Source: Candidatus Omnitrophota bacterium (GTDB taxonomy: Bacteria > Omnitrophota > Gorgyraeia > Zapsychrales > JANLHA01). Taken from it: a DNA stretch of 64,000 nt. Both the position numbers and the translations under genes were made by a program. Positions within the stretch are counted from its first letter, which is position 1. Every line of letters starts with the position of its first letter. The stretch lies in NCBI GenBank assembly GCA_963662715.1, contig OY759724.1, positions 3,293,845-3,357,844 of the forward strand, written 5' to 3'. The notes under the pieces are model-generated. The model was not told where the DNA came from, ran no database searches, and worked only from the letters and a program-made list of their open reading frames with translations. This document shows positions 21,573 through 42,447 of the stretch, one piece after another.

Positions 21573-22349
21573 ATGAGTACTGGTTTCTCTCAAAAGGCTT
21601 TCCTACCCATCGTCTTTCTCTTTTTTTCCTGTCTTTTGATTCATACGGCCTCGGCCCAGGAATCCATTATTTCCCAGATGACAGCCGCCCAAGAATCTTT
21701 GGTCGAAATTTCCGCGGAAAATTTCAATCTGTCGAAATCTCCCGCCTACGGACCGGTTCTAGATCCCCAATCCGGACGCATCGGGGTCATCCGCAATGTC
21801 CAGCAATCCTTTTACCGCCGGACCGGTTCCGGCGTCATTATCCATAAATCCGGAATCATCGTGACCAACGCGCACACAGTCAACCGCGCCCAGCAGATTC
21901 TGGTGAAACTGCACAATAACCTTGAGGTGCCGGCAGAAGTCATCCGTCTGGTCAGCCATATCGACCTGGCTTTACTGCGCGTCCGGGTTCCTTACCCGCT
22001 GACGCCTGTCCCCCTGGCGGATTCCAACAAAATACAGCTTGGAGATGATGTCCTGACCATAGGAAATTCTCCCCTGTTAAAACAAACGCTATCCGGCGGC
22101 AAGATCATCGGCCTTGGACGAAACCGGACCGCAGCCCAGCGGGGAGAGACCCGGAATGATTTCTTTCAGACCACGTTTAACGTCTATGAAGGGGACAGCG
22201 GCGGCCCGTTATTTAACCGGCAAGGGTCTCTCATAGGGCTGATGACAGCCAAGGAGACGGGGGCTGACCGGTCCAGCTTTGCCATACCCGCCAACCAAAT
22301 CTTTTTTTATTTGTCAGACTATCTTCATGGAACAAAACAAAAAAAATAA
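21573..22349 (+). CDS. Secreted trypsin-like serine protease (S1 family, DegP-like protease domain without PDZ), 258 aa
   Basis: It has a signal peptide and a catalytic triad in the contexts TNAHTV (His), DLALLRV (Asp) and GDSGGPLF (Ser). Confidence 0.75.
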   Translation: MSTGFSQKAFLPIVFLFFSCLLIHTASAQESIISQMTAAQESLVEISAENFNLSKSPAYGPVLDPQSGRIGVIRNVQQSFYRRTGSGVIIHKSGIIVTNAHTVNRAQQILVKLHNNLEVPAEVIRLVSHIDLALLRVRVPYPLTPVPLADSNKIQLGDDVLTIGNSPLLKQTLSGGKIIGLGRNRTAAQRGETRNDFFQTTFNVYEGDSGGPLFNRQGSLIGLMTAKETGADRSSFAIPANQIFFYLSDYLHGTKQKK

Positions 22350-22379
22350 TGTAAACCTTATGTCCCTTTTACTATAATC

Positions 22380-24938
22380 ATGGTCAAGACTATGAACGCG
22401 ACCAAGACATATTTTCTGTCTGTTCTTAAATCATGCCGCTGCCGGGGTTTTCTGCTGGCCTGGATTATTGTTTCTGCCATCGGCATCCACATGCGGCTTT
22501 ATCCGTTAAGACACCATACTTCGGATGAAGTCAAGGATAAGGCTTCGCTTTTGGTCATCACCCAGATCAAACAAACCGTCCAGAAGGCGGTGGCCGCCAA
22601 CTTTCCGCAGCTCAGTGCCGTCGAAAAAGAGTTGCTCATCCAAAAACAGTTCAACCGGATCCTGCGCACGGAAAAAGCCAATGTCAGGAAAAGCATTCAC
22701 GAGTTAAGCCGCAAACTTCAGGAACAGGACCCGGAACAAAGCCCGTTTTACCTCCTCGCTTCCGACTCATTTTATTATTACGACTTAACAAAAAACATCC
22801 TGAAAACCGGCCGGATCAGCGACAAAATCAAAGGGAGCAAATATTATAATAACAAAATGAACGCCCCGCACGGGTACTGGGAACCGTTCAACCTGCATCC
22901 CTATACCGGAGCCCTGATACACCGCTGCCTGTCCCGGATAAAACCCGGGATTCCGCTTATGTCCTCGGTCAGCGTTACGCCTTTAATCATTATGTGTATC
23001 AGCCTCCTGCCTTTTATCTGGATATGCCGGCACCTCCAGTGTTCTCTGCCCGGGACTATCACAGCCGCGCTTTTTCTCGTCTCCGCGCCCATCTTTCTTA
23101 AACGCAGCATGTACGGCTGGTATGATAACGACCCTTACAGCATCCTGTTTCCGCTGACCATCCTGTCTGTGGCCTTTTCAGGATTCAAAAGCATTCAGGA
23201 GCAGCGGCCCTGGCTCCCTCCCGCGCTTTTCTGCGGTTTGAGCATCTGGCTCTACTCCCTTTTCTGGCACGGGTGGGTTTTCCTGGAAGCCCTGCTTTTT
23301 GCCGGAGGGGTTCTTTACGGGCTTTATACTTTATTTTTCCTTAAACAAAGGTCCCGGGCCAAACGCCTGTTTCATTTTTTTACGATCGTCATCTCAACCA
23401 GCTTTCTGGGGGTGAGCCTCTTCTTCGGATGGCGGGAATTTTTCATATTATTTCAGGAAGGCCTTGCGGCATTAAAACATTTCTGGCAGCCTTCCTTCTC
23501 TTTATGGCCGGACCTGTACATTGCAGTCGGGGAACTGAAAAGGGCAAGCCTTCCTTTCCTCGTTGAACTGTGCGGAGGATATCTGTTTTGCCTTCTGGCT
23601 TTTCTGGGGTTGGGGAGCTGTGTCTGGCAGCTTATCACAAAGAAAACAGACTTTCCCGGAGAAAACATTTTTCTGATTCTTTTCGTGGGCGTGATCGTTC
23701 CCATGACCCTAGGGGCGCAAAGGTTTGCCCTGCTCTGCATCGTCCCCGCATCTCTACTGGCAGCGGTGGGGATCAAACAGGCCCTTTGCTTTATCAGGCA
23801 AGCCTGTCTGCGGCTGCCCCGGACAGCACTGCCCGTTCAAGCCGTCCAGACCATACTCACATCCCTGGTTCTGCTGGCATTGGCCTGTTTCCCTGTGGCC
23901 CGCGCCTATCACAACACGGAATCTCTGCTGAACCCCATCTTCAACGCGACCTGGGACCAGGCCTTGACCCGGGTTAAGAACGGCACTCCGGCTGACAGCA
24001 TCATCAATACCTGGTGGCCGCCCGGTCATTTTATAAAAGCCATCGCTGAACGCCGGGTCACGTTCGACGGCGCAACCATCAACCAGCCGCAGGCCTACTG
24101 GCTGGCGAATATCCTCCTGGCCGAGGATGAAGATACCGCCCTGGGTCTGTTGCGCATGTTAAACAATTCCTCTAATGAGGCCACGGACTACCTGCTGAGT
24201 ACCGGGATGAAGTTATCCGAGGCTGTCGCGACGCTTCATGAAATTTCCAAACTTGATAAAGACCGCGCACGGGATGATTTAAAGGATAAGTTGAACGAAG
24301 TCCAGCAGACGCATTTACTGAATTTAACGCATAGCCGGCCGCCGCCCAGTTATCTCTTGATCTATAATGAGCTCATTGAAGCTCACATCCTTATCAGTTT
24401 TACGGGACGGTGGGACTTTCAGGAAGCCGAAAACATCAATGAAGATCCCGCCCGGATGAAAAAGGTCCCGCGGGCCGGGTCAAAAGAATACATCTCTTTT
24501 CTCTGGGGAATTGCCGGGGGATACCCCCGCTACAGCGGCATCCTCAGCCCTGTCCATTCAGAAGAGAACAAAGTGCTCTTCTCAGACAATGTCCTCTGCC
24601 AAACAGACACCAAAGAATGCCTGATCAATTCTCCGACTTACGGCAAAGGCGTCCCCAAGTATATTCACTTCCTGGACAGCGGAAAAATCGTCGAGAAAGA
24701 ACTTCCCAACGCAAACCTCAATTACTCTGTCTTATTGAGTCCAACGGAAAGCGGCTATCAGTGCGCGTTAATGGACCATAACCTGGCCCGGTCCCTGCTG
24801 ATGCGGCTCTATTTTTTCAAAGGCGCCGGTTTCCGGGATATCAAACCCTTCCTGCAGACAAAAGACCTCACCACCCGCACCCAGATTTCCGTCTATGAAG
24901 TCGATTGGAATGCTTATCTGAGCCGCACGGCCCCTTAA
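22380..24938 (+). CDS. Large polytopic membrane protein (852 aa) with a C-terminal soluble domain; possibly an STT3/PglB-like oligosaccharyltransferase or another GT-C glycosyltransferase
   Basis: About 12-13 N-terminal TM segments are followed by NTWWPPGHFIK, which is reminiscent of the WWDYG motif of OST catalytic subunits. The resemblance is not exact, so the call is tentative. Confidence 0.3.
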   Translation: MVKTMNATKTYFLSVLKSCRCRGFLLAWIIVSAIGIHMRLYPLRHHTSDEVKDKASLLVITQIKQTVQKAVAANFPQLSAVEKELLIQKQFNRILRTEKANVRKSIHELSRKLQEQDPEQSPFYLLASDSFYYYDLTKNILKTGRISDKIKGSKYYNNKMNAPHGYWEPFNLHPYTGALIHRCLSRIKPGIPLMSSVSVTPLIIMCISLLPFIWICRHLQCSLPGTITAALFLVSAPIFLKRSMYGWYDNDPYSILFPLTILSVAFSGFKSIQEQRPWLPPALFCGLSIWLYSLFWHGWVFLEALLFAGGVLYGLYTLFFLKQRSRAKRLFHFFTIVISTSFLGVSLFFGWREFFILFQEGLAALKHFWQPSFSLWPDLYIAVGELKRASLPFLVELCGGYLFCLLAFLGLGSCVWQLITKKTDFPGENIFLILFVGVIVPMTLGAQRFALLCIVPASLLAAVGIKQALCFIRQACLRLPRTALPVQAVQTILTSLVLLALACFPVARAYHNTESLLNPIFNATWDQALTRVKNGTPADSIINTWWPPGHFIKAIAERRVTFDGATINQPQAYWLANILLAEDEDTALGLLRMLNNSSNEATDYLLSTGMKLSEAVATLHEISKLDKDRARDDLKDKLNEVQQTHLLNLTHSRPPPSYLLIYNELIEAHILISFTGRWDFQEAENINEDPARMKKVPRAGSKEYISFLWGIAGGYPRYSGILSPVHSEENKVLFSDNVLCQTDTKECLINSPTYGKGVPKYIHFLDSGKIVEKELPNANLNYSVLLSPTESGYQCALMDHNLARSLLMRLYFFKGAGFRDIKPFLQTKDLTTRTQISVYEVDWNAYLSRTAP

Positions 24939-24953
24939 ACCCAGACGGACGAC

Positions 24954-26486
24954 TCACCTATATAACCCCCCGCTATATGCTCCCCTGGCATCCCTTCTCT
25001 GCTGTGCTGGAGAGTCCAATTTTTGATATCTTTGAAATTGCCTATTATAATTATCTGAAATCCTTGAATCAGAAATATTCGATCTAATATGATTGGTCCT
25101 ACTATTAATACGAGAAGAAGCTGATATCGCTTCCCTAGCCCTAATAGCATCCCTGGGGCTAATAGTATTTCTAGACCTATTATTCTTAAGTTGGTCATCA
25201 ACGCTGGAAAGATTTGATTTTACTGGATCGGAAGCTCTCCAATTTGTAGATGTCCCGTTTATTTGTGAATATTCACTATTTTTCGCATTTCTATTACTTA
25301 ATTCAATTATCTGATTTCTTGAATTAATCATATCATTTATTAAATCTTGCGTCTGCTGCCAATGACCTTTTATATCTTGGCTTAAAACGATCTCGTTAGA
25401 TTCAAATTGTCTTAATAAATTGCTTCGCTCAGTGTTCCAAGCGTTGCGAGCATTTACTAAATCACTGAAATCCTTACCATACATTTTCTTTAACTGTTCT
25501 ATTGCGTTATTTATAATCGTTTCTACTCTTTCCTCAGCTTGCTTAAAACGAACAAGACTAATCTCTAAATTTTCTAACACCATATCCTGTTCTTCCTTTA
25601 ATTCCGCATAAAGATTCATCAAGTCCCTGAATTCCCCTTCAGTAATGTCTACCAGCTGTTCGCTTAAATCCTTCAGTTCACTTTCAATTTTCTGATTGTT
25701 CTCCTGCAAGTAGCCTTCAGAAGATTCGAAAGTTTCGATTAACAAATCATACTCGTTTCCCAACAAATCTGTTATTTCCGATAATTCTTCAAGTTTTGCT
25801 TTTTCTCTTTCAATATTCTTACTAAAAATTTCCTTAAAATAACTGTCGATATCTGTGACATATCTATTCAAACATTCTTCAAATCCCCCGCAATACGCGA
25901 TATCATTCTTTTCTTGCCCAACGGCTATCTTCTCTATGGTACTTAAATTATTCTCTAATCTAACGGCGTCTGCTCTTCTTATTCTACCGGATTTCTCGGC
26001 AATCGACGCTAAAAGTTCTTCTTTGATTTCTTGATACTTTTTTGCCCGCAAGTCTTGATCGCTTATATTTTTAAATTCAACAATGTCTTTTTGAAATTTA
26101 TCTAACTCAGGGAATTCATTTAAAAAAGCCTCCCTTTCTTTTTCAATTATTTCTGCAAACGTTGCCGCCTCCTCTTGCAGGTGTCCGTTAACTTCCTTTA
26201 TTTGTTTTAAAATCTCTCCTCTCTTACGTATCAATTCTATCCGCTTCTCCTGAATCTCTTTATGAAATTTTTTTAATTCTCCCAATTTATTTTGCAATCT
26301 GACTTGGCTTTGCTTTCTAACTATTTCTACGGATGGCTCTTTCTTGGAATAGTCGGCTATTCCCGCAAAATCAATGATCTGGCCCACCAAACTTAATTCT
26401 CCCTTATTAATAAGATATTGGTTATAGGAAAAAAAACCAACCATCAGAAAAAGAACTATTAAATATACATAAGGTTGTCCCGCCAT
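24954..26486 (-). CDS. N-terminally anchored long coiled-coil protein (510 aa) with a Ser/Arg/Asn-rich disordered C-terminus; last gene of the T2SS-like array
   Basis: An N-terminal TM segment (LIVLFLMVGFFSY) is followed by heptad-like E/K/L-rich sequence. No catalytic motif was found. Confidence 0.45.
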   Translation of the reverse strand: MAGQPYVYLIVLFLMVGFFSYNQYLINKGELSLVGQIIDFAGIADYSKKEPSVEIVRKQSQVRLQNKLGELKKFHKEIQEKRIELIRKRGEILKQIKEVNGHLQEEAATFAEIIEKEREAFLNEFPELDKFQKDIVEFKNISDQDLRAKKYQEIKEELLASIAEKSGRIRRADAVRLENNLSTIEKIAVGQEKNDIAYCGGFEECLNRYVTDIDSYFKEIFSKNIEREKAKLEELSEITDLLGNEYDLLIETFESSEGYLQENNQKIESELKDLSEQLVDITEGEFRDLMNLYAELKEEQDMVLENLEISLVRFKQAEERVETIINNAIEQLKKMYGKDFSDLVNARNAWNTERSNLLRQFESNEIVLSQDIKGHWQQTQDLINDMINSRNQIIELSNRNAKNSEYSQINGTSTNWRASDPVKSNLSSVDDQLKNNRSRNTISPRDAIRAREAISASSRINSRTNHIRSNISDSRISDNYNRQFQRYQKLDSPAQQRRDARGAYSGGLYR

Positions 26487-26700: not shown

Positions 26701-27612
26701 TTACTCCGGAGATAAGGAGCCTGGATGGATAAACGGCGTCGGGGTGGGAACGACACGTCCGGTCCCGTCATCGGCCTGGGGGATGGTGTTCAAGGTGCCC
26801 TTCAGACGGATCTTCATCGTGGGGCCGCCCCCGGCCGGAGCGTTTGTCACCGCCGGTTTGGGTTTAGGCGTCGACTCCACCAGATGACCTGATGTTGCCG
26901 CCGAAGGAGAATGATAAAGGAACTGCTCCTGGGAAATCCGGGCCTCTTCCGGGTTGACAATGGATCTTTCCAGCTGTCTGGCTAAATTGTTTTCCCCCAT
27001 ATGCCGTAAAAGGGTGATAACTTCCAGGACCCTGGCCCGCTCATTGTTCTGCGCATAGGCCAATCCCAGCCCAAAATACACCATCGGACTCTGAACCTTT
27101 TCCGCAACGTCATTAAAATATAAGATGGCATCGGCCGGCTGTTGCTTGCCGACCAGGTAAATCCAGGCCAAAGAAAGTTTTACGCCGGCCAGTTCCGGGT
27201 TAATCGCCAAAGCTTTCCGGCAGGCCTGTTCGGCTTCATTATGTTTTCCGGCCTGATAATAAACCCTGCACATATTATGGTAAGCGTCCGTGTTTTGGGG
27301 ATCAATATCCACAGCCACTTTAAAGAACCATATCACGTCAGAGAGCGGGTCCTGTATGGCCTGATGAGCCAAACCCAGGGCGTTATAAACCGGGGCAAAA
27401 TTAGGATCAACCTCAACCGCCTTTTCATAATGCTGTATGGCCTGGGCATAATTGCCGCTATGGTATTCTGTTTCTCCTTTTTCATAAAGTTCTCGGAAAG
27501 ACTGGGCCCCCGCTGTTGCCGGCCCCAACAGGCTGAAGCTTATAAAAACAAAAAACAGCGATAAACATTTCCTCATAATCCTGCACTCCTTGTTAGCTAG
27601 AATAAGGCTCAT
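26701..27612 (-). CDS. Secreted tetratricopeptide-repeat protein (303 aa)
   Basis: A signal peptide is followed by several TPR units (YAQAIQHYEKAVEVDPNFAPVYNALGLAH..., DAYHNMCRVYYQAGKHNEAEQACRKALAINP). Confidence 0.65.
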   Translation of the reverse strand: MSLILANKECRIMRKCLSLFFVFISFSLLGPATAGAQSFRELYEKGETEYHSGNYAQAIQHYEKAVEVDPNFAPVYNALGLAHQAIQDPLSDVIWFFKVAVDIDPQNTDAYHNMCRVYYQAGKHNEAEQACRKALAINPELAGVKLSLAWIYLVGKQQPADAILYFNDVAEKVQSPMVYFGLGLAYAQNNERARVLEVITLLRHMGENNLARQLERSIVNPEEARISQEQFLYHSPSAATSGHLVESTPKPKPAVTNAPAGGGPTMKIRLKGTLNTIPQADDGTGRVVPTPTPFIHPGSLSPE

Positions 27613-27616
27613 GACA

Positions 27617-29851
27617 TTAGGGTTTTATCATGCGCTCCCAGACATTCGTTTCTTCCTCTTCTTCCGCTTCTTCCGACGCATCATCCTGTAAAGCTTTTAA
27701 TCCTTTTCTGACCGGTCTGGAACTCTTTTCCTTGGATGATTTCTTCTTGCTGGAAGTCTTTTTAGACTTCGTCTGAGATTCCTCGCTTGCTTTGTCTTCC
27801 GATCCCCAGAACTGCCTCCACAAGGTGTACAAGTCATCCAAACGGAAACCTTTGGCTTTACGGCTGTTTAACAATTTATCAAAATCCTTTGTATGTTCCT
27901 TAATCGGCTGGATATACGCCGGGGGTGTCGGTTGCGGCGTGGGTGTCCCCCGGGGAGATTCTTTTCCCTCCTGAGTTTCTTCACCGCCTCCCGTGCCTCT
28001 TCCGCGGGCGTCTTCGTCGTTACCCCCGCCCTCTCCGCCGGAACCGCTCCCGCTTTCCTGCGCGCCTTCCCCCTCGCCTTCGCCAGCGCCCTGCCCTTCT
28101 CCCCGGGCTCCCTCGCCTTCGCCTCCGCCTTGAGACTCGTCACTCTGATCCCCCACGCCTTGAGATTCGCCGTCACCTCCCTGAACGTCTCCACTCCCCT
28201 CGCCTTCGCCTTCCCCGCCGCCTTGCCCTTCACCTTCTCCGGACCCGCTTCCCGCTCCGCTGCCTTCCCCGGCCCCTGTCCCTTCACCGCCGCTGTCTCC
28301 TTCTCCTTCGCCGGATGTATCACCCTGCCCTCCGGCATCCCCTCCGCCGTCCATGGAAATATCACTTCCCCCGTCGCCGGCCCCTCCCCCGGAACCGTCA
28401 GCCCCTCCGCCGTCTCCCTGCCCGCCGCCTGATCCATCCTGCCCGCCGGAACCTTCACCCGAACTTCCGGCACCGCTTCCCGCTCCGGCCCCCTGCCCGC
28501 TCCCGGCGCCGTCGCCGGAACTGGACCCGCCTCCTCCGTCACCCTGCCCGGCACCCGTACCGCCCTGCCCTCCGGAAGACCCCTGCCCCTGCCCTGCCCC
28601 GGAACCGCCCGCCGATGAACCAGCACCGCCTCCGCCGGGCCCCTGACCGCCCTGCCCGGCGCCGCCATCACCGGTACCGGCGCCCTGGCCGCTGCCGGTG
28701 CCGCTGCCGAGACCTGATCCGGCCCCTTCTCCGCCGTCACCGGAGCCGCTTTGCTGCGAATCACCTCCGCCGGTCGTCCCTTTCCCCTCTCCGCCGGCTC
28801 CCTGCCCGCCGCCATCGCCCTGCCCCTGGGCATTTCCGCTCTGCCCTCCGGCGCCCTGGCCGTCGTTCTGTCCCTGCCCCTGGGAGTCTGCCGAGCCGCT
28901 GCCTCCCCCTTGCGCCGAACCGTCTTCTGAACCTCCGTCCTCCGATTCATTTCCTTCGGTCTTCTGGGCCTGTCCTTCGGCACCCTCCCCTTCCGGGGAC
29001 GCGCCGCCCTCCTGCGCCTGTCCCTGCGTTTCTGTCTCCTGCCCTTTTTGACCGGCAACATCATCATCCGCCGAGGAAGCTCCGTCCTTTGTTTCCTGTC
29101 CGGGAATATCTCCTCCGTCTTTTCCCTCCTGCCCGTCCGAACCTTCGCCTTTCCCGTCTCCGTCAGAATCAGACCCGCCCTCTCCCGAGCCCGCCCCCTT
29201 GCCTTTGGCCTCTCCGTCTCCCGGCGCCCCGTCTTCCGCGGTCCTGTCCGCCCCGGCCGAAAAATCAATATCATCTTCCGAAAATTCCACACTGCCGATC
29301 GTCTTGGGATCAATAATCAATTTCGCGACCTTAAAAGCGGCGGTGACTCCGTCGGCCGAAGCTTTCTGTCCGGAAATGCTCATTTTGACAATCTTTAACA
29401 AATTCGTCGTCGTGTCGATCTTGTACATAAAACTGACCATATCCTCCAGCCGGCCGGAACATTCCATGTTGGCATAATATTCAACATACCCTTTTTTCTG
29501 GGTCATATCCGAAGAGATCAGTTTGATAAGATTGATATTCGCTTCTGACGCTAAATTTTCAATCGTCTGCAAAAAGGCAGCAATGATCTCTTCTTCCGAC
29601 TCCGGCGTTTTCTCCAGATAAATGCTGTATTCCTGCTCTTCCTGCAGGATCTTACTTTCATACGAGAGAAACCGGGAACTGTTTTTAATCCCGATCATCT
29701 TTTCTTTTGTTTCTGTATCGATAGCGTGTTTCTTGCTCGTATACGGGCGGAAAACAAGCCCGTCAAACAAAGCCAGGACAGCCACTCCGACGGCAATATA
29801 AAAGATTTTTCTTTCCTGCTCAGACAATTTGCTGTAAAAATTCTGAAACAA
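27617..29851 (-). CDS. GspM-like T2SS inner-membrane component (N-terminal ~190 aa) with a ~500-aa Gly/Ser/Glu/Asp-rich low-complexity insert and a Lys-rich C-terminus, 744 aa
   Basis: A short cytoplasmic N-terminus, a single TM segment (IFYIAVGVAVLALFDGLVF) and a periplasmic domain of GspM/PilO size lie immediately downstream of the GspL-like gene. These are followed by GxGxGEGEG... low complexity. Confidence 0.4.
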   Translation of the reverse strand: MFQNFYSKLSEQERKIFYIAVGVAVLALFDGLVFRPYTSKKHAIDTETKEKMIGIKNSSRFLSYESKILQEEQEYSIYLEKTPESEEEIIAAFLQTIENLASEANINLIKLISSDMTQKKGYVEYYANMECSGRLEDMVSFMYKIDTTTNLLKIVKMSISGQKASADGVTAAFKVAKLIIDPKTIGSVEFSEDDIDFSAGADRTAEDGAPGDGEAKGKGAGSGEGGSDSDGDGKGEGSDGQEGKDGGDIPGQETKDGASSADDDVAGQKGQETETQGQAQEGGASPEGEGAEGQAQKTEGNESEDGGSEDGSAQGGGSGSADSQGQGQNDGQGAGGQSGNAQGQGDGGGQGAGGEGKGTTGGGDSQQSGSGDGGEGAGSGLGSGTGSGQGAGTGDGGAGQGGQGPGGGGAGSSAGGSGAGQGQGSSGGQGGTGAGQGDGGGGSSSGDGAGSGQGAGAGSGAGSSGEGSGGQDGSGGGQGDGGGADGSGGGAGDGGSDISMDGGGDAGGQGDTSGEGEGDSGGEGTGAGEGSGAGSGSGEGEGQGGGEGEGEGSGDVQGGDGESQGVGDQSDESQGGGEGEGARGEGQGAGEGEGEGAQESGSGSGGEGGGNDEDARGRGTGGGEETQEGKESPRGTPTPQPTPPAYIQPIKEHTKDFDKLLNSRKAKGFRLDDLYTLWRQFWGSEDKASEESQTKSKKTSSKKKSSKEKSSRPVRKGLKALQDDASEEAEEEEETNVWERMIKP
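27784..29269 (-). repeat. GC-rich low-complexity coding tract (imperfect GGx/GAx/GSx codon repeats) inside the GspM-like gene
   Basis: The translation is dominated by G, S, E, D and A with no regular unit. The opposite strand gives Pro/Arg-rich pseudo-ORFs. Confidence 0.6.
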
Positions 29852-29869
29852 AACGACACTCCTTAATGA

Positions 29870-31393
29870 CTATTCTTCTTTACCTTCTTCCTCTCCGGCG
29901 CCTTCCCCGTCTTCTAACACATCCTCCGCCGCCGGGATCTCTTCTTCATCATCAGCCCATTCCAGCTTAAAGGCAATCTCAAAAGCCGCCACATCCTTCC
30001 CCCGTTCCTTTTTGGCCGATGTCGATCTTGTCTTAACATTCTTGAACAACTCCGATTCTTCAAGCGCCGTAACGAAATTGAAAACCCGGGACATCGTTTC
30101 GGAAACACCGGTGATCTCAACGCTGCCGTTTTCTGTCATGCTGATGGACTGGAGATAAATTTCATCCGGGATAAGTTTATACAGGGTCGTCACAACTTCC
30201 AATCCGACCATACGGCTTTGCAAGTACCCCTTCATGATACGGGTCTTTTGCGCTTTACGGTCAAGCGCCAGGACTTTCTTCCGTTTTTCCTGATAGTCTG
30301 TCCGCAGGCGTTCAAGGTAGAGGTTATTGAAATGTTCCTTGCTGACGAAGATAAAAGCAAAAATAATAAAAATGAGAAAAGCTAATATTCCCGTCTTAAT
30401 GACCTGCCGGCCTTTTTCTTCGATGACCCGCTGGGTTTTAATTTCCTCCGGCGTCAGGTCAACCTTCATTTGCTCAAGGCTCCATCCGCAGCCGATTATA
30501 GTGAAGAAGGAATCGTCGTTGTACTCCGAAACAAGCTTCATCATCTCCGGCTGCCCCGCCTGGATGATATCCAGATAAGGCATCATCTTAATGTTGGCTT
30601 TCAGTTTTTCCTGCAGAAGCGGCTGCATCTCTTTCAGCGTGGCGTCATCGCTCGTTATAATAAACGTTTCCGGAAGGCGGTTAATATCCTCGTTCTGATA
30701 AGCTTCAACGGATTGACTTAACTCCATCAACAATTTGTCCCGCGCCTCGGCCCCTTCCTTAAGGAGGTGCGACAGACCGATAGGGATATGCCGGTACATA
30801 GCTACGGTTTTATTGGATTCGATCAGGAAAGACGTGTACGGGTTGGCCACATCAATGATCCCCAGGGGGATATCATCCTCTTTGAGGTTCATGGCTTTGG
30901 CATAAAAATGAGCCATGCCTTCCGGGGCGAAAAGGACCTTATCCACCTTAATACCCGCTTCATCAAGCACTTCCAGTTGTTTCTTCACGACGTTCCGGTT
31001 GACAAGAATCAACAGGACCTTGGTGTAATTACGCTGGAAAACGCCGATCTTAATATAGCCGACGAGGATCTCCTCTCGGGAGAAAGGCGTGTGCCGTCCG
31101 GCCTGCAGCTCGATAATGGACTGTATTTCCTCGGCATCCAAAGAAGGGATTTCGATGTTTTTTGTGATCACCTGGCTGGGAGGAAGAGTACAGATGGCCG
31201 GCGTCTTTTTGATATGGATATCCGCCAGGCAAGAATGGATTGTTTTGGCCAGCTCTTCTTCGGGGAGATCCCGCAGGTCCCCTTTGGTCACGTGAAGAAG
31301 TCTTTTATCAGACTCCTTGCCCCTGATCTGAGCGACCTTGATGGAGACATCATCCAGACTGACGATAACGGTTTCTTTATCTTTGCTAAACAT
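29870..31393 (-). CDS. GspL-like protein (PilM-like cytoplasmic actin-fold domain, TM segment, PilN-like periplasmic domain), 507 aa
   Basis: The call rests on domain order, on the position between gspK and the gspM-like gene, and on an acidic C-terminal tail. Confidence 0.5.
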   Translation of the reverse strand: MFSKDKETVIVSLDDVSIKVAQIRGKESDKRLLHVTKGDLRDLPEEELAKTIHSCLADIHIKKTPAICTLPPSQVITKNIEIPSLDAEEIQSIIELQAGRHTPFSREEILVGYIKIGVFQRNYTKVLLILVNRNVVKKQLEVLDEAGIKVDKVLFAPEGMAHFYAKAMNLKEDDIPLGIIDVANPYTSFLIESNKTVAMYRHIPIGLSHLLKEGAEARDKLLMELSQSVEAYQNEDINRLPETFIITSDDATLKEMQPLLQEKLKANIKMMPYLDIIQAGQPEMMKLVSEYNDDSFFTIIGCGWSLEQMKVDLTPEEIKTQRVIEEKGRQVIKTGILAFLIFIIFAFIFVSKEHFNNLYLERLRTDYQEKRKKVLALDRKAQKTRIMKGYLQSRMVGLEVVTTLYKLIPDEIYLQSISMTENGSVEITGVSETMSRVFNFVTALEESELFKNVKTRSTSAKKERGKDVAAFEIAFKLEWADDEEEIPAAEDVLEDGEGAGEEEGKEE

Positions 31394-31418: not shown

Positions 31419-32462
31419 TCATAATTCTTTCCAATAGACAATTTTTTGCTCCGGCGCGAAAAAAACGCAGGAAATGAGTTTTTTGCCCTTGGACGACGCT
31501 ATAGTGGCGTAACTGTGAATACGGTAATAGTACGATTGTGTTCCCAGCCAGCCCTGGGCATTGAGTTCCTCGATAAGCTGAATATCCTCCTTTTCTATGG
31601 ACTTCTGAGCCGCCATAAAAGACACGAGTTGGGGGAGATCAGGGAAGACCATATCATCGGCCGTCCAGTCCATCCCGTCGACCCCTCTTCTTATAGCCAG
31701 AAAACGGCTCACAAAAACATCAGGGAATCCCAGCGACAGCAGGACAGGACGGGATGCGGTATTTATGTTCACCTTCCCGCTGCCGAAGACCGTCAGGTAA
31801 GGAAGGAGTTGCCCCGCCACTTCGGGAGTCCAGCCCCGAAGAAGAGCTAATTCGTGCGTGGTCTCAAAATTCGCCTTTTTCTCCGGGAAAGGGAACTCCA
31901 GGTTATCATAATACTCGTCACTGTAGAACCCGACGATTTCACTGTCGCCGTACTTGCGCCAGTCAATAACGGCCTGAGCCAGATCGTTAGCATCCTCCTC
32001 ATCCATAGACAAAACAGTCTGGATCAGCTTTGTCAGGACATCTTCATCGGCCTTGTTGATATTGATTCTTCTTTCCTCATCGGTAAAGCCGTATAAGACC
32101 CGTGCCCGGCCGGCCGCGGACTCTTCCTCTGAGCGGTATTTCAACTCAAAAGAGCCCGGCCCCCGGGAAGCATCCTTGAAGACAGCCGGGTTATTCATCC
32201 ACTGAATTCTCCGGACAGCAGGAGGCGTCCGGGTCCCCGCTTTATTCTTATGGGCTTCATAAAAAATATACATCGCCTTGGCGACTCCTGATTTAGCCAG
32301 CCAATAAAGGTCCTGGCGCTGTTCCAGCCGTGAAACGAGCGTCATCTTTTGACGGATCTGCGCCCCGAGGCTGACGGTCAGAAAGCCCAGCAGGCCCAAC
32401 GCCCATATGGCCAGAATAAGAATCGTCCCTTCTTTTTTCTGCAGCTTACGCATGTTCATCAA
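31419..32462 (-). CDS. gspK: GspK-like minor pseudopilin (347 aa)
   Basis: An N-terminal hydrophobic segment (GTILILAIWALGLLGFL) and a helix-hairpin-helix-like GSGKVNINTASRPVL motif are characteristic of GspK. Confidence 0.6.
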   Translation of the reverse strand: MMNMRKLQKKEGTILILAIWALGLLGFLTVSLGAQIRQKMTLVSRLEQRQDLYWLAKSGVAKAMYIFYEAHKNKAGTRTPPAVRRIQWMNNPAVFKDASRGPGSFELKYRSEEESAAGRARVLYGFTDEERRININKADEDVLTKLIQTVLSMDEEDANDLAQAVIDWRKYGDSEIVGFYSDEYYDNLEFPFPEKKANFETTHELALLRGWTPEVAGQLLPYLTVFGSGKVNINTASRPVLLSLGFPDVFVSRFLAIRRGVDGMDWTADDMVFPDLPQLVSFMAAQKSIEKEDIQLIEELNAQGWLGTQSYYYRIHSYATIASSKGKKLISCVFFAPEQKIVYWKEL

Positions 32463-33100: not shown

Positions 33101-33549
33101 AAATAAGACAAGTACGCTGACCGGCTGAGCCTGGCCGTCCGGCTGCGTTCCGGCCAGGAAAGGGTCATCTCCATCTCATAAAAATCTTTTTCCGTGTTGA
33201 GCGGTTTCATGCTCACCGAAAGCCGGAACGGAATCAGTCGCTTGTTTAATCTGACCGCATGCACGGACCCGTTTAAGTCCTTGGGGAGAGCGGCCCCGCT
33301 CTTAAAAAGGTATTGTATACGGGTAGCCTGATGATCAAGATAATTCTTGGCAAACAACCGGTTCGTTAAATGCTGCTGATAATCAAAAGACAGCAGCATC
33401 GCCTTGTGGATCATCACGAGGCCGAGGGAGAAAACGACAACGGTGACCATAACTTCGAAGAAGGTAAACCCCCGCCTCTTCAGACAACGCAGCTCCCCGG
33501 CGCTATCTTCATTCCCAGTTAACGATATCATCCTCGTCCGTATTTTCAT
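33097..33549 (-). CDS. Minor pseudopilin (GspI/H-like) with a prepilin-type N-terminus
   Basis: It contains ...KRRGFTFFEVMVTVVVFSLGLVMI. I moved the start from the track ORF start (33645) to an internal Met to avoid a 137-nt overlap with gspG. Confidence 0.45.
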   Translation of the reverse strand: MKIRTRMISLTGNEDSAGELRCLKRRGFTFFEVMVTVVVFSLGLVMIHKAMLLSFDYQQHLTNRLFAKNYLDHQATRIQYLFKSGAALPKDLNGSVHAVRLNKRLIPFRLSVSMKPLNTEKDFYEMEMTLSWPERSRTARLSRSAYLSYF

Positions 33550-33952
33550 CCTTCCCCTTTGAATAAAGGTCATAATCCATGCGATGATCCCCGGGAGAGC
33601 GATACTCGTATACCTGCCCCCAGGGATCAACGGGCCTTTTTTCAATATAAGGACCGTTCCAGTTCGTCGGGACCGGACTGCTCGTCGGCTGCTTCAGCAG
33701 GGCTTCCAGGCCCTGGCTGGTCGTCGGGAAATGGCCATTATCCAGCTCGTACAATTTCAAAGCTGTCGCTAAATTGGTCTCTATATCCGCCTTGGCCACG
33801 GCCTTTTTCGCTTGCTCTGAACGCCCGGTTAACCGGGGGACAACCATGGCGGCCAGCGCCCCGATGATAACCACCACCATAATGATTTCCACCAGGGTAA
33901 AACCTGCCTCTCGGGATCTATAAGAATTTTTCCTGCAAGGCATTCCTTTCAT
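33509..33952 (-). CDS. gspG: Major pseudopilin GspG
   Basis: The leader MKGMPCRKNSYRSREAG precedes FTLVEIIMVVVIIGALAAMVVPRL; the downstream sequence ...ADIETNLATALKLYELDNGHFPTTSQGLEALL...NWNGPYIEKRPVDPWGQVYEYRSPGDH..DYDLYSKGKDENTDEDD is a strong GspG signature that includes the Ca-binding loop. I moved the start to the internal Met at 33952. Confidence 0.85.
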   Translation of the reverse strand: MKGMPCRKNSYRSREAGFTLVEIIMVVVIIGALAAMVVPRLTGRSEQAKKAVAKADIETNLATALKLYELDNGHFPTTSQGLEALLKQPTSSPVPTNWNGPYIEKRPVDPWGQVYEYRSPGDHRMDYDLYSKGKDENTDEDDIVNWE

Positions 33953-33996
33953 TTTCGTATCACCTCTCTCCCGTTGATTCATCATAATCTCTAAAA

Positions 33997-34857
33997 TTAC
34001 CGCCCATCCATCATGGACGACTGTTTCATAAACGAGATCCATTTTCTTTCAAGGTCATTCAAATCCTTGATCGTGCTGGGATACACGCGTTGAAGGGCGG
34101 ACTCAAAATCCCGCCCGTCGCGTATCTGACGGCAAAGCCGGCCAAAGGCATCACTGCCGTGCTTTTTAATCAGGAACTCTACGATGGAAAGACTTTGAGC
34201 GTAAAAAACCGCAACCTTAAGAGGATCCGTTTCCTGCTGTATATCCCAGATCATCAGATGTTCCAAAGGGATATATTGATCCTGGGCAAGAAAAGACCGC
34301 ATGATTTTAAATGCTGATTCACTTTTGCCGGCCTCATAGAGCTGCGCGATCCCTTCGTCAAACCACATCGGGATACGCTCCGTGTCCGGGATGAAATCAT
34401 GCAGTATTAAATGACCGATCTCATGAGGCAAAAGCCCGTCAAAGAATTCCTGGTCCTGCCGATACGTCACGATGACCCTCCCCAGCAGAGTATAGGAGTC
34501 TTTGTTGACATACCCGGTGGACCATTCAGGCTGTCCGGTCTGCTCGGAGAAAGTCTTCCGGTCCGGGAACAGATAAATGTTGACCCGCTGCTCCCAGGTC
34601 CAGAAATTACCGTAACGGGTAAACCCGATCTTAGCTCCGATGTTCTGATAGTAACGTTCCGCCTCCCGGAGGATCCGCTGGGCTGTTTTTTTATCTTTCG
34701 TTTCCTGGAAATGCACAACAAAATGCTTGTCTTTTAACTGCTGCCAGTCTTCTTCCTGAAAAACATTTTGGAGGCGAGGTTCTCCATAAACTGTCCCCGG
34801 AGAAAGGACCAGCACCTGCCAAAGAACAAAGATATGAATCATTTTTCTGCGCACCAT
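33997..34857 (-). CDS. Secreted zinc metalloprotease (HExxH, peptidase MA clan), 286 aa
   Basis: A signal peptide and an LLPHEIGHLILH zinc-binding motif are present. The gene is embedded between gspF and gspG. Confidence 0.5.
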   Translation of the reverse strand: MVRRKMIHIFVLWQVLVLSPGTVYGEPRLQNVFQEEDWQQLKDKHFVVHFQETKDKKTAQRILREAERYYQNIGAKIGFTRYGNFWTWEQRVNIYLFPDRKTFSEQTGQPEWSTGYVNKDSYTLLGRVIVTYRQDQEFFDGLLPHEIGHLILHDFIPDTERIPMWFDEGIAQLYEAGKSESAFKIMRSFLAQDQYIPLEHLMIWDIQQETDPLKVAVFYAQSLSIVEFLIKKHGSDAFGRLCRQIRDGRDFESALQRVYPSTIKDLNDLERKWISFMKQSSMMDGR

Positions 34858-34874: not shown

Positions 34875-36086
34875 CTATCCGGCAAAAACATCCAGCTGAA
34901 AAATGGGTAATAACATCGCGATAACAATAAACCCGATAACAGCCCCGATAATAACAATCATAAGCGGTTCCAGCATTGTCGTCATGATCTTAATCTTTTC
35001 ATTCGTCTCCTGCTCATAATTTTCTGCGATATCCAGCAAAGTTTCCCCTAACAGCCCTGATTCCTCTCCCACACTAATAAGATGACTGACCATTTCAGGG
35101 ATCATCGGGGATTCCCCCAGAATTTCCCCAAAAGACCGCCCGGCCACCAACTCTTCCTGACACGTTTTAAGGTGATCCTGAAGGATAGAATTGCCGGTCA
35201 CCGGGATGGACAGTTGAAAAGCCCTGACGACAGGGACTCCGCTCTGAATAAGTAAACGCAAGGCCCTGGCAAAACGGGCTATCTCAAGTTTCAGCAGAAA
35301 GTCCCCCCAAAAGGGAGTTGCCAGACTCAATTGATTAAGGAATAACCGTCCCGCGGAGGTTCTCGCCCACTGCTTCAACAGGGCCGTCAGAACAATGACC
35401 GCCACCCCGCAGAAAAATCCGTACTGCAGCAAGAAATCACTCATATTCATAACCATCAGGGTCGGCGCCGGGAGGGTTTGGTTAAAATTCTCATATAACG
35501 CCGTTATTTTCGGCATCACGTACGTTAAGGTGAAAATGATGGACGCGATACCAAAAACAAGCATAAAAAGAGGGTACGCAAGCGCAGACCGCACTTTTGA
35601 TAGGATCTCTTCCTGCTGTTTCTGATATTCCGTGATACTCAGCAAAGACTCCTTCAAACGGCCGCTTTCTTCCCCGGCCTTCACGAGAGTGACATATAAC
35701 GGAGAAAATATTTTGGGATAATCCGCAAAGGATTCTGAAAGCGATTTACCTCCCCGCACCTTCGCCTGAATGGAATCGATGATAAAACGGGAATACGAAT
35801 TCTTTGTCTGCTGGCTTAAGACTTCCAAGGCTCTTAAAATCGGGACCCCGGCCTTGATTAAACTGACGAGCTGCTTGCTGAAAAGGTACCGCTCCTTTGA
35901 GCTGATCCGCCCGAAACGGTACGCCTTGCGGTCCGGCGCCGTTACCGGGGAGATTTCTTCAACGGAGACAGGAACGTAGCCCAGCTGATGGACCTTTTCA
36001 ATAGCGTCTTCCCGGCTTTCCGCTGTCAGACGTCCGACGATTGTCTCAGCGTTTTGTTGTTTGGCTTTATAATGATATTGTGGCAT
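34875..36086 (-). CDS. gspF: T2SS/T4P inner-membrane platform protein GspF (403 aa)
   Basis: Two GspF repeats are present, with ...LVKAGEESGRLKESL... and ...LISVGEESGLLGETL... motifs, and three TM segments. Confidence 0.85.
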   Translation of the reverse strand: MPQYHYKAKQQNAETIVGRLTAESREDAIEKVHQLGYVPVSVEEISPVTAPDRKAYRFGRISSKERYLFSKQLVSLIKAGVPILRALEVLSQQTKNSYSRFIIDSIQAKVRGGKSLSESFADYPKIFSPLYVTLVKAGEESGRLKESLLSITEYQKQQEEILSKVRSALAYPLFMLVFGIASIIFTLTYVMPKITALYENFNQTLPAPTLMVMNMSDFLLQYGFFCGVAVIVLTALLKQWARTSAGRLFLNQLSLATPFWGDFLLKLEIARFARALRLLIQSGVPVVRAFQLSIPVTGNSILQDHLKTCQEELVAGRSFGEILGESPMIPEMVSHLISVGEESGLLGETLLDIAENYEQETNEKIKIMTTMLEPLMIVIIGAVIGFIVIAMLLPIFQLDVFAG

Positions 36087-36120: not shown

Positions 36121-38337
36121 TTAACTTTCCTGGTTTTGCTGCTTCCCTTTTTTCCGTTGTTCCCGGACAAAATGATTAATATGAACACGGTCGGCGCTCG
36201 AAATATCCAGATAATAAACGACAATGTTAAACATCGCTGAAAGGTTGTCGTCTTCAACACGGCAAACCCGGGCCAGACAATTGACCCGTTTTTCCGCTCC
36301 CGGCAATTGGATGCGAAGGTCAACGATAGCCCCGACCGGGAGCGTGTAGCCGGAGACGAAACGCAGTCCTCCGGCACTGATGTCGCGCGTCACAGAAGCG
36401 TGCTCGACCTGGTCATAAAACAATTTCAACGGGTTTTTCGGATCCTGCCGTACGATCGAGTACCGTATGCTGACCTTCTCCTCGGCCCGGTCATAAGCGC
36501 GTGAATTGTAGTCATCCTTGACCGAAAGGATTTCCTTGTTGATGACCCGGACATTTTCCGGGTTTTTGTTTAACCCTGTGACGATCAGGCCCTGCGACAA
36601 AGCCGGAGCTTCTTCACCTTGACTGAGATCATCTTTCACCGTAACGTTAATGACTTCGCCGGGGGTCGTAATCCCGGCCAGGACTTTTTGCCACCCATTC
36701 TGTCTCAATGTCGTCATACCCCGTTTAACGGCCAGCCGTTTAATCTGATCTGCACGCTGTTTCTCCAGGATGGCGCCACGGATATCTTCATCAATAACCA
36801 GAATCTCATAAAGAGCCGTGCGGCCGTAATACCCTGTCTGATGACAGAAATCGCATCCCCGTCCCTGAAAAATTTTTATGTGACGCGGGTCCGTGATCCC
36901 CAGGGAAGCAGCCATCTCCTGCCTAATCTCCTGGGGCTGACTCAAATCTTCTTTTTTGCATTGAGGACAGATCGTCCGCACAAGCCGCTGCGCTATAAAA
37001 GCCTCTATGCTGGAAGACACCAGAAACGGCTCCATCCCCATTTCTATAAGCCGGGTGATTCCGCTGGAGGCATCATTGGTATGCAGGGTCGAAAAAACCA
37101 AATGTCCTGTTAAAGCCGTACGGATCGCGATTTCCGCTGTTTCAAGATCCCTGATCTCCCCGACCATGATAATGTCCGGATCATGCCGCAAAACACTTCT
37201 CAATCCCGTGGCAAAATCGAACTCCACCCGGGGATTGATTTGAATTTGCGTAATCCCCTCCATCTCATATTCCAGGGGATCCTCCAGTGTCACGATCTTT
37301 CTGTCGGGGGAATTGATCTCATGAAGACAGGCATAAAGCGTCGTTGTTTTTCCGCTGCCGGTCGGGCCGGTCACTAAAATGATCCCGTGCGGCCGTTTGA
37401 CCAGATCACGGAAGACATCCAGGTTTTTCTGATCCAGCCCCAATTTCTCAAGGCTTAACAACATAACATTCGTGGGAAGAATACGGATCACCATACTTTC
37501 GCCATGAGAAGTCGGGATCGTGGAAATACGAAGATCCAGGGTCTGTTCTTTGGTTCTAACGACCGCGCTGCCGTCCTGAGGAAGCCGTTTTTCAACAATA
37601 CTGAGGTTGGCGATGATTTTAATTCTGGATATGATGGACGGCAGAAAACCTTTAACCGCCTGAGGAATATTGGCGTCGAGCAAACGTCCGTCTATGCGGT
37701 AACGCACCCGGACAATATTCCGGTAAGGCTCAATATGAATATCGGTCGCCCTTTTCTTATGGGCTTCCAGGAGAATCTGGTTAACTAATCTTGTTATCGT
37801 AACTTCATCGGCACCTTCGTCCAGATCCTCAACCGCTGTTTCCGCCTGTCTTGAAGGGGCCGATTCCCTGGACAACCGCTCAAGAGTATCAGCCGCCAGG
37901 CCGTAATATTTATTCAGAGCGTTCATAACATCAGCTTCCCTGGCAAGAACGATTTTCGGCTCCAAGGACAAATGCACCCGGATTTCATCCTGGGATTTGA
38001 CATTCAGAGGATTGGCACAAGCCAAAAGAACGCTTTTGTCCGTTATCTTAACGGGCATAAACTTGTAATACCAGGCGAACCGGACAGGAACCCGGGTCAG
38101 GACCGTTTGATCGACAGGATAACTCTGCAGGGAAATAATTTCAAGCTGATACAAATCCGAAAGAATCTGCAAAAGCTGATCTTCGGGAAGGATTTTCTTC
38201 TCCACGAGAATATCCTTAAGAGAAACAGGGGAATTCTCAACAGCGCGCAGCTGTTCTTCAACAAGCGCCCCTGTTAACAGGCCTCTTTTAACAAGTTCTT
38301 TAGCGAGTATTTTATCGGATTGCTTCATCGGGAACAC
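36121..38337 (-). CDS. gspE: T2SS ATPase GspE with a C-terminal PilZ domain (738 aa)
   Basis: It has an N-terminal T2SSE_N domain, Walker A (VTGPTGSGKTTTLYA), an Asp box/Walker B (IMVGEIRDLETAEIA) and a His box (LVFSTLHTNDA). The additional ~115-aa C-terminus carries the PilZ signatures RYSIVR (RxxxR) and DISAGGLRF (DxSxGG). Confidence 0.9.
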   Translation of the reverse strand: MFPMKQSDKILAKELVKRGLLTGALVEEQLRAVENSPVSLKDILVEKKILPEDQLLQILSDLYQLEIISLQSYPVDQTVLTRVPVRFAWYYKFMPVKITDKSVLLACANPLNVKSQDEIRVHLSLEPKIVLAREADVMNALNKYYGLAADTLERLSRESAPSRQAETAVEDLDEGADEVTITRLVNQILLEAHKKRATDIHIEPYRNIVRVRYRIDGRLLDANIPQAVKGFLPSIISRIKIIANLSIVEKRLPQDGSAVVRTKEQTLDLRISTIPTSHGESMVIRILPTNVMLLSLEKLGLDQKNLDVFRDLVKRPHGIILVTGPTGSGKTTTLYACLHEINSPDRKIVTLEDPLEYEMEGITQIQINPRVEFDFATGLRSVLRHDPDIIMVGEIRDLETAEIAIRTALTGHLVFSTLHTNDASSGITRLIEMGMEPFLVSSSIEAFIAQRLVRTICPQCKKEDLSQPQEIRQEMAASLGITDPRHIKIFQGRGCDFCHQTGYYGRTALYEILVIDEDIRGAILEKQRADQIKRLAVKRGMTTLRQNGWQKVLAGITTPGEVINVTVKDDLSQGEEAPALSQGLIVTGLNKNPENVRVINKEILSVKDDYNSRAYDRAEEKVSIRYSIVRQDPKNPLKLFYDQVEHASVTRDISAGGLRFVSGYTLPVGAIVDLRIQLPGAEKRVNCLARVCRVEDDNLSAMFNIVVYYLDISSADRVHINHFVREQRKKGKQQNQES

Positions 38338-38370: not shown

Positions 38371-40771
<2,401 letters not shown>

Positions 40772-40783
40772 AGCCTTTCATCC

Positions 40784-41542: not shown

Positions 41543-41559
41543 AACAATCTCCTCATTGT

Positions 41560-41787
41560 TTATTCAGAAACTAATGCTTTAAAAAATGTTAATATCAGCG
41601 CAAAGGAAACGGTTTCAACAATAACTAGCTTCAGTAAAATACTCATTTGTATAGCCGGTGTCTTGCTGGGGGCCCGGCCTAACCGGTTAATAAGCTGCAC
41701 CCCCACCCAAGCGGCGCCGATACAGGGGATAATAATCAAAATCCAGAAAATGATAATAAAAACCAGGGCAACATTCGCCATAAACAC
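41560..41787 (-). CDS. ATP synthase c-subunit paralog (75 aa, divergent)
   Basis: It is a two-TM hairpin with a loop LGRAPSK and a conserved carboxylate in helix 2 (VIVETVSFALIL). Confidence 0.55.
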   Translation of the reverse strand: MFMANVALVFIIIFWILIIIPCIGAAWVGVQLINRLGRAPSKTPAIQMSILLKLVIVETVSFALILTFFKALVSE

Positions 41788-41805
41788 CTCTTCCGATAAT
41801 GACTC

Positions 41806-42027: not shown

Positions 42028-42097
42028 AACACAACTCCTTTTTCATCATTGTATTCAGAAAGCACGGATAGTCCGGCTATAACATGTTTCCTCTCGG

Positions 42098-42430: not shown

Positions 42431-42447
42431 AAGCCCAAGGAATCTCC

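Follow-up and report, generated by a model that had tools for sequence, protein, structure and literature searches.

A divergent PilO of an Omnitrophota bacterium with a predicted disordered glycine-rich linker and a conserved C-terminal module

We analysed a 64,000-nucleotide stretch of DNA from a Candidatus Omnitrophota bacterium (assembly GCA_963662715.1, contig OY759724.1), here called the window, and one gene in it that encodes a PilO-family protein of 744 amino acids (aa). The protein falls into three composition blocks: an N-terminal domain (aa 1-195), a glycine-rich low-complexity tract (aa 196-645) and a C-terminal end-piece (aa 646-744). We propose with moderate confidence that the tract is a periplasmic flexible tether which presents the C-terminal module to a distal target. 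Among the relatives the spacer varies in length while the end-piece is fixed, and this combination is the signature of a linker or tether. An earlier reading of the same DNA, the original prediction, had described the product as a GspM-like component with a long Gly/Ser/acidic insertion.

The N-terminal domain resembles PilO

The PilO-type domain spans aa 1-185 (29297-29851, minus strand). The first 195 residues have an ordinary composition with one strongly hydrophobic segment, the predicted single transmembrane helix at aa 16-34 (IFYIAVGVAVLALFDGLVF; 29750-29806, minus strand). This segment is the top Kyte-Doolittle 19-mer of the protein (mean 2.39). The Pfam family PilO (PF04350) is matched with 22.9 bits by the full protein and with 26.5 bits by aa 1-195, a small margin above the gathering score of 22. 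Within the family the PilO profile is matched by 18 of 21 members and T2SSM_b by two of the 21.

An AlphaFold2 (AF2) model of aa 1-195, built from 21 sequences, has a mean predicted local distance difference test score (pLDDT) of 86. It contains helices at aa 11-78 (which includes the transmembrane segment), 86-103 and 135-147 and strands at aa 107-119, 122-134, 152-161 and 168-180. The part after the transmembrane helix and the long helix, aa 86-180, thus has an alpha-beta-beta-alpha-beta-beta core. The best fold match in the PDB found with Foldseek is PilO in the M. xanthus type IVa pilus (T4aP) machine model (3jc8_O, E 3e-8), and P. aeruginosa PilO is matched as well (2rjz, E 2e-6; also 5uvr). 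Amuc_1100, a PilO-like protein of Akkermansia, matches with E 3e-4 and PulM, a GspM, with E 0.04 only. Identity to the solved PilO sequences is only about 11-12%. A profile search of the PDB sequences with the N-domain alignment gave chance matches only (E >= 0.036, choline kinase and others), so the likeness to solved PilO is seen only at the fold and Pfam level.

Judged by profile and model, the N-terminal domain is a divergent PilO. PilO is a better label than GspM, because the NCBIfam GspM model (NF040576) scores 20.3 bits, below its cut-off of 60, and because of the poor PulM fold match. The GspM/PilO-type bitopic N-terminus of the original prediction is therefore right as a class, and the profile search places the domain within PilO rather than outside this class; the specific name GspM has to be given up.

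The tract is a degenerate low-complexity linker

The linker covers aa 191-653 (27893-29281, minus strand), as supported by composition, charge, pLDDT, GC content and the ratio of nonsynonymous to synonymous substitution rates (dN/dS). In the full-length AF2 model aa 191-654 have pLDDT values below 50 and no secondary structure, and the tract is predicted to be intrinsically disordered. Between aa 196 and 645 the composition is 41% Gly, 11% Ser, 9.6% Glu, 8.9% Gln, 8.7% Asp and 8.7% Ala, and Val, Ile, Leu, Phe and Met together make up less than 2%. The same residues include 82 acidic and 14 basic ones, resulting in a net charge of -68. The acidic parts are the outer thirds of the linker, and the middle third is a near-neutral Gly/Ser/Gln/Ala stretch. 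Entropy per 30-residue segment is 2.0-2.7 bits in the tract and 3.0-3.8 bits in the flanks. An insertion of about 500 aa had been predicted; it exists, with a length nearer to 450-460 aa.

The DNA of the tract has a GC content of 70%, whereas the remainder of the gene has 43% and the surroundings about 48%. Only 6 of 1330 15-mers recur in it, and Tandem Repeats Finder reports tiny arrays of 2-6 copies only. All four Gly codons are used, in proportions that resemble those of the neighbouring genes. The tract is a degenerate compositional repeat and not a DNA microsatellite, which agrees with the GC-rich degenerate codon repeats noted before.

Textbook random-coil scaling, not simulation, gives for 463 residues a radius of gyration of about 7.6 nm, a root-mean-square end-to-end distance of about 18 nm and a contour length of about 165 nm. 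Charge repulsion would expand such a chain and glycine would compact it. The reach of the linker is thus estimated to be of periplasmic order.

Tail length varies in the family

A search with the N-terminal 208 aa found homologues in Omnitrophota that are 170-364 aa long; NCBI names one of them PilO ("PilO, partial"). Aligned with the window protein, they share its three-part build, in which a Gly/Ser-rich stretch of varying length lies between the N-domain and a conserved C-terminal end. When 1.84 billion representatives were searched with a profile, 1660 matched at E <= 0.001. Tail statistics were taken from the best 150 of these 1660, 147 of which have a complete N-domain, plus the window protein: the length past the N-domain has a median of 31 aa and an upper quartile of 150 aa, and the longest tail among the representatives is 344 aa (P0029).

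In addition, GTDB species genomes were scanned, giving 27 related loci, to which 4 metagenome loci were added. The tail is 559 aa long in the window copy (106 acidic and 37 basic residues), 576 aa in L007 (108 and 42), 528 aa in L009 (138 and 48), about 420 aa in L001 (second, frameshifted open reading frame (ORF); 53 and 41), 335 aa in L008 (44 and 37) and 336 aa in L012 (45 and 26). The partial copies L005 and L006 also belong to the long-tail class. At the other end, L029, L030, L026 and L027 have tails of 0, 2, 31 and 54 aa, respectively, and the same secretin-less operon. A comparison of orthologues for insert length, proposed with the original prediction, hence finds variation of the tail from 0 to 576 aa. 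Strong negative charge is restricted to the subclade of the window copy, L005-L007 and L009; most other tails are near neutral, among them P0029, L008 and L012. In both length and charge the window copy is an extreme of the family.

The distribution of charge bears on another use of the tract, a cation- or mineral-binding polymer, in which the GEGEG/GDG sequences would chelate Ca2+, Mg2+ or metals in the envelope. The 82 Asp and Glu residues per 450 residues would suit this function. We consider it very improbable, since the anionic character is limited to one subclade and since PilO is the sole match of the whole protein in a Pfam scan at E <= 0.1, which detected no RTX/HemolysinCabind, TonB_C, TolA or GspB family. 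Moreover, the few Val, Ile, Leu, Phe and Met residues of the tract are too few for an RTX beta-roll. The same idea in the original prediction finds no specific support, given the clade-specific charge and a Pfam scan that matched no binding family. An RTX-like Ca-binding beta-roll was rejected on the missing HemolysinCabind match and the hydrophobic content. RTX repeats are GGxGxDxUx nonapeptides with a conserved hydrophobic position and a HemolysinCabind match, and by this standard the tract is different.

A conserved module ends the protein

The conserved C-terminal module comprises aa 654-744 (27620-27892, minus strand), as supported by a hidden Markov model (HMM) of the module and by predicted short helices. 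The last 99 residues (aa 646-744) contain 17% Lys together with an acidic patch. A Lys-rich tail had been seen correctly in the original prediction, which missed the two conserved motifs in it. Motif A (LDDLYTLWRQFWG, aa 671-683; 27803-27841, minus strand) is a predicted aromatic amphipathic helix. It is followed by a Lys/Ser-rich basic spacer with a net charge of +10 (aa 691-720; 27692-27781, minus strand) and by motif B (TNVWERMI, aa 735-742; 27626-27649, minus strand), which has an acidic patch ahead of it. The full-length AF2 model predicts short helices at aa 654-664, at aa 671-682 in motif A and at aa 737-742 in motif B, with pLDDT values of 53-65.

In the family, motif A takes the form LWxxF[WFI]G or the variant SQRFxMK and occurs in 33 of the 74 members of at least 240 aa, always 39-79 residues from the C-terminus; in most relatives it is flanked by basic clusters. 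Motif B, [SN]-h-[WFY]-E-[KR]-h-h after acidic residues, is present in 52 of these 74 members and lies, with one exception, within the last 8-35 residues. The distance of the motifs from the C-terminus is fixed regardless of tract length (0-576 aa). Aromatic amphipathic helices beside polybasic stretches are a type of element that binds membrane interfaces or docks in the groove of a partner.

The module HMM matches only PilO-family ORFs in the window and in 12 related loci; 11 of the 12 have E-values of 5e-8 or lower and L020 has 0.065. A database-wide alignment search for the module on other proteins returned 399 candidates, none of them at E <= 0.001, the module being too short for significance in 5.8 billion sequences.

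The gene is intact

The protein is encoded by a single ORF of 744 codons (27617-29851, minus strand) with a TTG start and a TAA stop codon at 27617-27619. In the alignment this start agrees with the N-termini of the homologues (MIQNFYSKLS...). A Shine-Dalgarno sequence, AAGGAG (29859-29864, minus strand; read from the sequence), is located 7 nucleotides (nt) 5' of the TTG and 5 nt past the stop codon of the upstream gene. This upstream gene encodes a PilM-PilN fusion and its stop codon is 18 nt ahead of the TTG; downstream, the ATG of a gene for a tetratricopeptide repeat (TPR) protein follows 4 nt past the TAA. A look-up of the full 744-aa protein by exact sequence found no record. Two ORFs in alternative frames, 27868-29313 on the minus and 27925-29316 on the plus strand, were rejected as genes; they are Arg/Ala/Pro-rich by-products of the stop-poor, GC-rich tract.

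An artefact had been considered from the outset, either a fusion of two genes or a mis-assembled tract in this GC-rich low-complexity region. Three minus-strand frames are all largely open across the tract, and several relatives show damage. The contigs of L005 (10001-11582) and L006 (10001-11231), both from GTDB, break off within the orthologous tract. In L001, the closest metagenome relative, two ORFs of 282 and 395 aa make up the orthologue, with the frame change among G6/A-rich homopolymer runs (L001:10762-10849); the second ORF holds the Gly-rich tract and the same C-terminal motifs. Because of these breaks and the frameshift near homopolymers we regard the region as error-prone in assemblies, and the gene as systematically damaged there.

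For the window copy, an artefact is nevertheless hardly credible. Orthologues from independent assemblies, L007 (761 aa) and L009 (713 aa), are intact, have the same three-part layout and carry the C-terminal motifs in frame, as the window gene does. Their N-domains are 75% and 56% identical to that of the window protein, respectively (L005 and L006: 75%). The translation of the tract is uniformly rich in Gly, Ser, Asp, Glu and Gln and nowhere switches to the Arg/Ala/Pro-rich alternative frames, and there are almost no exact DNA repeats that could collapse. In a codon-level comparison of L007 with L006, the synonymous substitution rate (dS) is 0.153 for both N-domain and tract, and dN/dS is 0.044 for the N-domain and 0.25 for the tract; L007 and L005 give 0.18 for the tract. 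These values indicate that the tract is translated in the annotated frame and is under purifying selection, weaker than that on the folded domain. Comparative sequence analysis therefore confirms a real and intact gene with neither fusion nor frameshift, which largely settles the concern raised with the original prediction.

The tract as a proposed tether to a distal target

We suggest that the gene product is the PilO subunit of a type IV filament machine of Omnitrophota and belongs to its inner-membrane alignment platform; this machine would combine T4aP-like PilM/N/O with T2SS-like GspG/K pseudopilins (T2SS, type II secretion system). By homology, the bitopic PilO domain would pair with the PilN half of the upstream PilM-PilN fusion; in characterised T4aP machines the PilO core pairs with PilN. 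Since PilM is cytoplasmic, since one transmembrane helix separates PilN in the fusion and since the PilO core pairs with PilN, the tract and the end-piece would be periplasmic. From the core a disordered, Gly-rich, anionic linker of about 460 residues would then extend into the periplasm to a module of about 90 residues, in which two short aromatic amphipathic helices (LWxxFWG; N-h-W-E-R/K-h-h) lie among basic clusters. Negative charge and glycine would keep the chain expanded, soluble and non-sticky. Its flexibility would allow the module to reach out from the inner-membrane platform and hold on to a distant target, most plausibly the inner leaflet of the outer membrane or a partner in the outer envelope. 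The original prediction had pictured a periplasmic, disordered, anionic polymer. Predicted disorder and net charge agree with it and the periplasmic location would follow from the topology; the tract, which links the PilO core to the C-terminal module, is not a free-ending polymer.

Several points weigh against such a tether. The positive-inside rule is ambiguous at the transmembrane helix, and the topology therefore rests on homology. Orthologues in the same operon have tracts of 0 to about 576 aa, so that a fixed spanning distance is not a family-wide requirement. The motif helices are modelled at low AF2 confidence, and target binding and membrane affinity of the module are putative. Finally, the partner of the module could instead be a local one, either PilN/PilO or the TPR protein encoded next door.

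Local binding would make the protein a ball-and-chain regulator: the module would fold onto the PilN/PilO core or bind the co-translated TPR protein, and the tract would be a permissive spacer whose length drifts. The TPR gene, 4 nt past the stop codon, follows PilO wherever the locus extends far enough, the ligands of TPR domains are typically short peptides and in many cases acidic C-termini, and a length range of 0-576 aa suggests that length is not critical. However, the presence of the TPR gene does not track that of a tail: the tail-less L029 and L030 retain it, and the TPR protein therefore does not depend on the motifs. Pure drift is also argued against by a dN/dS of about 0.2 and by the retention of tracts of about 450-530 aa across lineages with N-domain identities of 56-75%. 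We think it rather unlikely that the module acts in this way.

A function without specific distal docking would be that of a polyanionic entropic brush. The tails of about a dozen PilO copies per machine would form a hydrated negative cloud around the filament conduit that excludes or spaces peptidoglycan and proteins, and the C-terminal motifs would merely cap or organise it. The extreme net charge in the clade of the window copy, both in its tract and in the whole tails of L007 and L009, and the absence of predicted structure fit a brush. So does a tract in which composition is conserved rather than sequence, with 55% identity between the window and L007 and a dN/dS of about 0.2. Against it, most members have short or near-neutral tails and still retain the C-terminal motifs, which points to the end-piece as the functional element, and the copy number is assumed from other T4aP machines. 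A brush seems to us unlikely, if worth keeping in mind.

In a bolder version of the tether, about 12 PilO tails per machine of these ultra-small bacteria, each a polyanionic chain of about 460 residues with an aromatic/basic module at its end that would bind a membrane or a partner, would jointly make up a disordered sleeve in the periplasm and so couple the inner-membrane platform to the outer envelope. We consider this quite improbable. If it were true, a disordered polymer would do the job of folded PilP/GspC and of the secretin N-domains, and the filament machine would have an intrinsically disordered polymer brush as its trans-periplasmic connector. The related claim of the original prediction, that the tract is a stand-in for missing outer-membrane components, is weakened by L029, L030, L026 and L027, whose operon is the same secretin-less one and whose tails measure 0-54 aa. 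The tract is therefore not required to compensate, and the operon must work, or fail, in its absence.

The operon combines pilus and secretion genes

The PilO gene belongs to an operon on the minus strand, and all its genes listed here are on this strand. F-type ATPase genes (38371-43992) encode alpha, beta, gamma, a b/delta fusion, two c-like subunits and an epsilon-like ORF. They are followed by a GspE/PilB-type ATPase (36121-38337) with an MshEN-like N-domain and a PilZ-like C-domain, which suggest double cyclic di-GMP control. GspF is encoded at 34875-36086 and GspG at 33509-34042. Between these two lies an MA-clan peptidase (Peptidase_MA_2, 33997-34857), which is kept there in most loci. 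Two minor pseudopilins are encoded between GspG and GspK (31419-32462). The PilM-PilN fusion (29870-31393; 507 aa, Pfam PilM_2 and PilN) is functionally GspL-like and lies directly upstream of the PilO-family gene in all related loci. Its C-terminus (29870-29960) is a charged low-complexity tail with about 30 acidic residues; the L001 fusion (8226-9905) has a Lys/Glu/Gly-rich C-terminal tail of about 55 residues. The TPR gene (26701-27612) encodes a secreted protein of 303 aa, identified by Pfam TPR families. The order of the operon recurs in the 27 GTDB and 4 metagenome loci as far as the contigs extend.

Clusters for type-4a pili beside a non-respiratory F-type ATPase are typical of Omnitrophota (Seymour et al. 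2023, PMC10066038), and the window operon matches this published T4aP/"symbiotic" ATPase arrangement. The families Secretin, PilP and GspC were unmatched in the 27 window ORFs scanned, which are all plausible ORFs of at least 200 aa. With E. coli GspD, GspC or GspM as query, phmmer found no match among the ORFs of 100 aa or more from the window and the 31 related loci, a single-sequence search of limited sensitivity and with no Omnitrophota positive control. The secretin negatives cover the window and the related loci at +/-10 kb, not whole genomes. ExbB/D and TolQ/R families were not found among the operon proteins scanned, and a prepilin peptidase (PilD/GspO) is not present in the operon.

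Comparison with known machines and tethers

The protein shares with T4aP PilO (P. aeruginosa 2RJZ/5UVR; M. xanthus 3JC8) the bitopic layout, transmembrane helix, coiled-coil helix and ferredoxin-like alpha-beta-beta-alpha-beta-beta core, and the gene position directly after pilM/pilN, here fused and 18 nt upstream. Canonical PilO ends at the core, at about 200 aa, whereas the window protein adds the linker of about 460 aa and the module of about 90 aa. In contrast to the T4aP pilMNOPQ unit, pilP and pilQ do not follow the window PilO, and no window ORF matches Secretin. With GspM (PulM 5HL8, XpsM) it has the fold class in common, as well as the role as partner of GspL, and GspL is structurally a PilM+PilN fusion like the product of the upstream gene. 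The operon shares GspG- and GspK-type pseudopilins, GspE and GspF with the T2SS. It differs from it in that GspC and GspD were undetected in the operon and in that the PilM-PilN fusion fills the role of GspL.

Amuc_1100 of Akkermansia muciniphila (6LAD/6KNY), from the Amuc_1098-1102 pilus cluster, is similar in fold (E 3e-4, as above), and the upstream PilM-PilN protein weakly matches the Amuc_1101 family. The Akkermansia cluster has a secretin (Amuc_1098 family), whereas none was seen at the window locus. Akkermansia is a member of the Verrucomicrobiota and thereby of the PVC group, to which NCBI taxonomy assigns Omnitrophota as well. Amuc_1100 is not known to have a long low-complexity linker or an LWxxFWG or NLWERhh motif.

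Tethers of the TonB, TolA, GspB (OutB) and LpoB type are comparable in working principle only: from an anchor in the membrane, a long spacer that is extended or disordered crosses the periplasm, and a small element at the C-terminus touches a partner on the far side. There is no homology to TonB, TolA or GspB, the operon has no ExbBD/TolQR motor genes, and their spacers are Pro-rich or helical, whereas the window spacer is Gly/Ser/acidic. GspB/OutB is described in PMC9239104 as tying the T2SS secretin to the inner membrane.

Significance

In type IV pilus and T2SS machines, alignment across the periplasm is attributed to folded domains, namely PilN/O, PilP and the secretin N-domains. A different way of connecting or organising envelope-spanning parts is suggested by this Omnitrophota-wide PilO family, in which a conserved, putative docking module sits at the C-terminal end of a disordered linker of 0-576 residues. 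The literature searched contained no account of a PilO or GspM that bears a long disordered or Gly-rich extension or these C-terminal motifs, and nothing relevant on an Omnitrophota secretin or PilQ. Papers on Omnitrophota treat pilus and ATPase clusters and giant genes, not this feature of the PilO tail (PMC10066038 among them). The same study describes Omnitrophota as host-dependent nanobacteria whose pili have been proposed to mediate attachment or predation (PMC10066038).

A PilO with a lineage-specific tether module is thus apparently undescribed so far. Low-complexity linkers are widespread, and the system as such is not new. What is unusual, and experimentally tractable, is that the alignment complex of a filament machine carries a conserved, putative docking module on a presumably periplasmic disordered region of 0-576 aa. 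The family constitutes a natural length series for testing periplasmic linker length and charge. Since metagenome assemblies often truncate, split or mis-call the gene, PilO may be under-annotated in Omnitrophota.

Other genes of the window

Convergent to the operon, the plus strand encodes an STT3/PglB-type oligosaccharyltransferase (852 aa) and a trypsin-like protease (21573-24938), which are kept in this convergent downstream position in nearly all related loci. The STT3/PglB-type enzyme may N-glycosylate pilus or envelope proteins. The PilO tract was considered as its substrate and rejected: it contains only four Asn (0.9%) and a single D/E-x-N-x-S/T sequon, which is not conserved in L007 or L009 (translations read by eye). 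Between the TPR gene and the STT3 gene, in a patch of 35% GC, lies a coiled-coil ORF of 510 aa (24954-26486, minus strand) that matches no Pfam or NCBIfam family. A homologue was undetected in any related locus, and the ORF looks like a lineage-specific insertion.

The ORF of 6144 aa beside the ATPase/pilus cluster (45511-63945, minus strand) is a "giant gene" such as has been reported for Omnitrophota, with 16 or more Lysostaphin_N domains (Pfam) and an extreme GC skew of about -0.5 over about 17 kb. A teneurin-like/RHS YD-shell protein of 2771 aa (1641-9956, minus strand) with NHL repeats and TTR-like and FN-plug domains is probably a polymorphic toxin. A DDE transposase (DUF772 and DDE_Tnp_1_6; 16449-18044, plus strand) is located in a patch of reversed GC skew and lower GC content.

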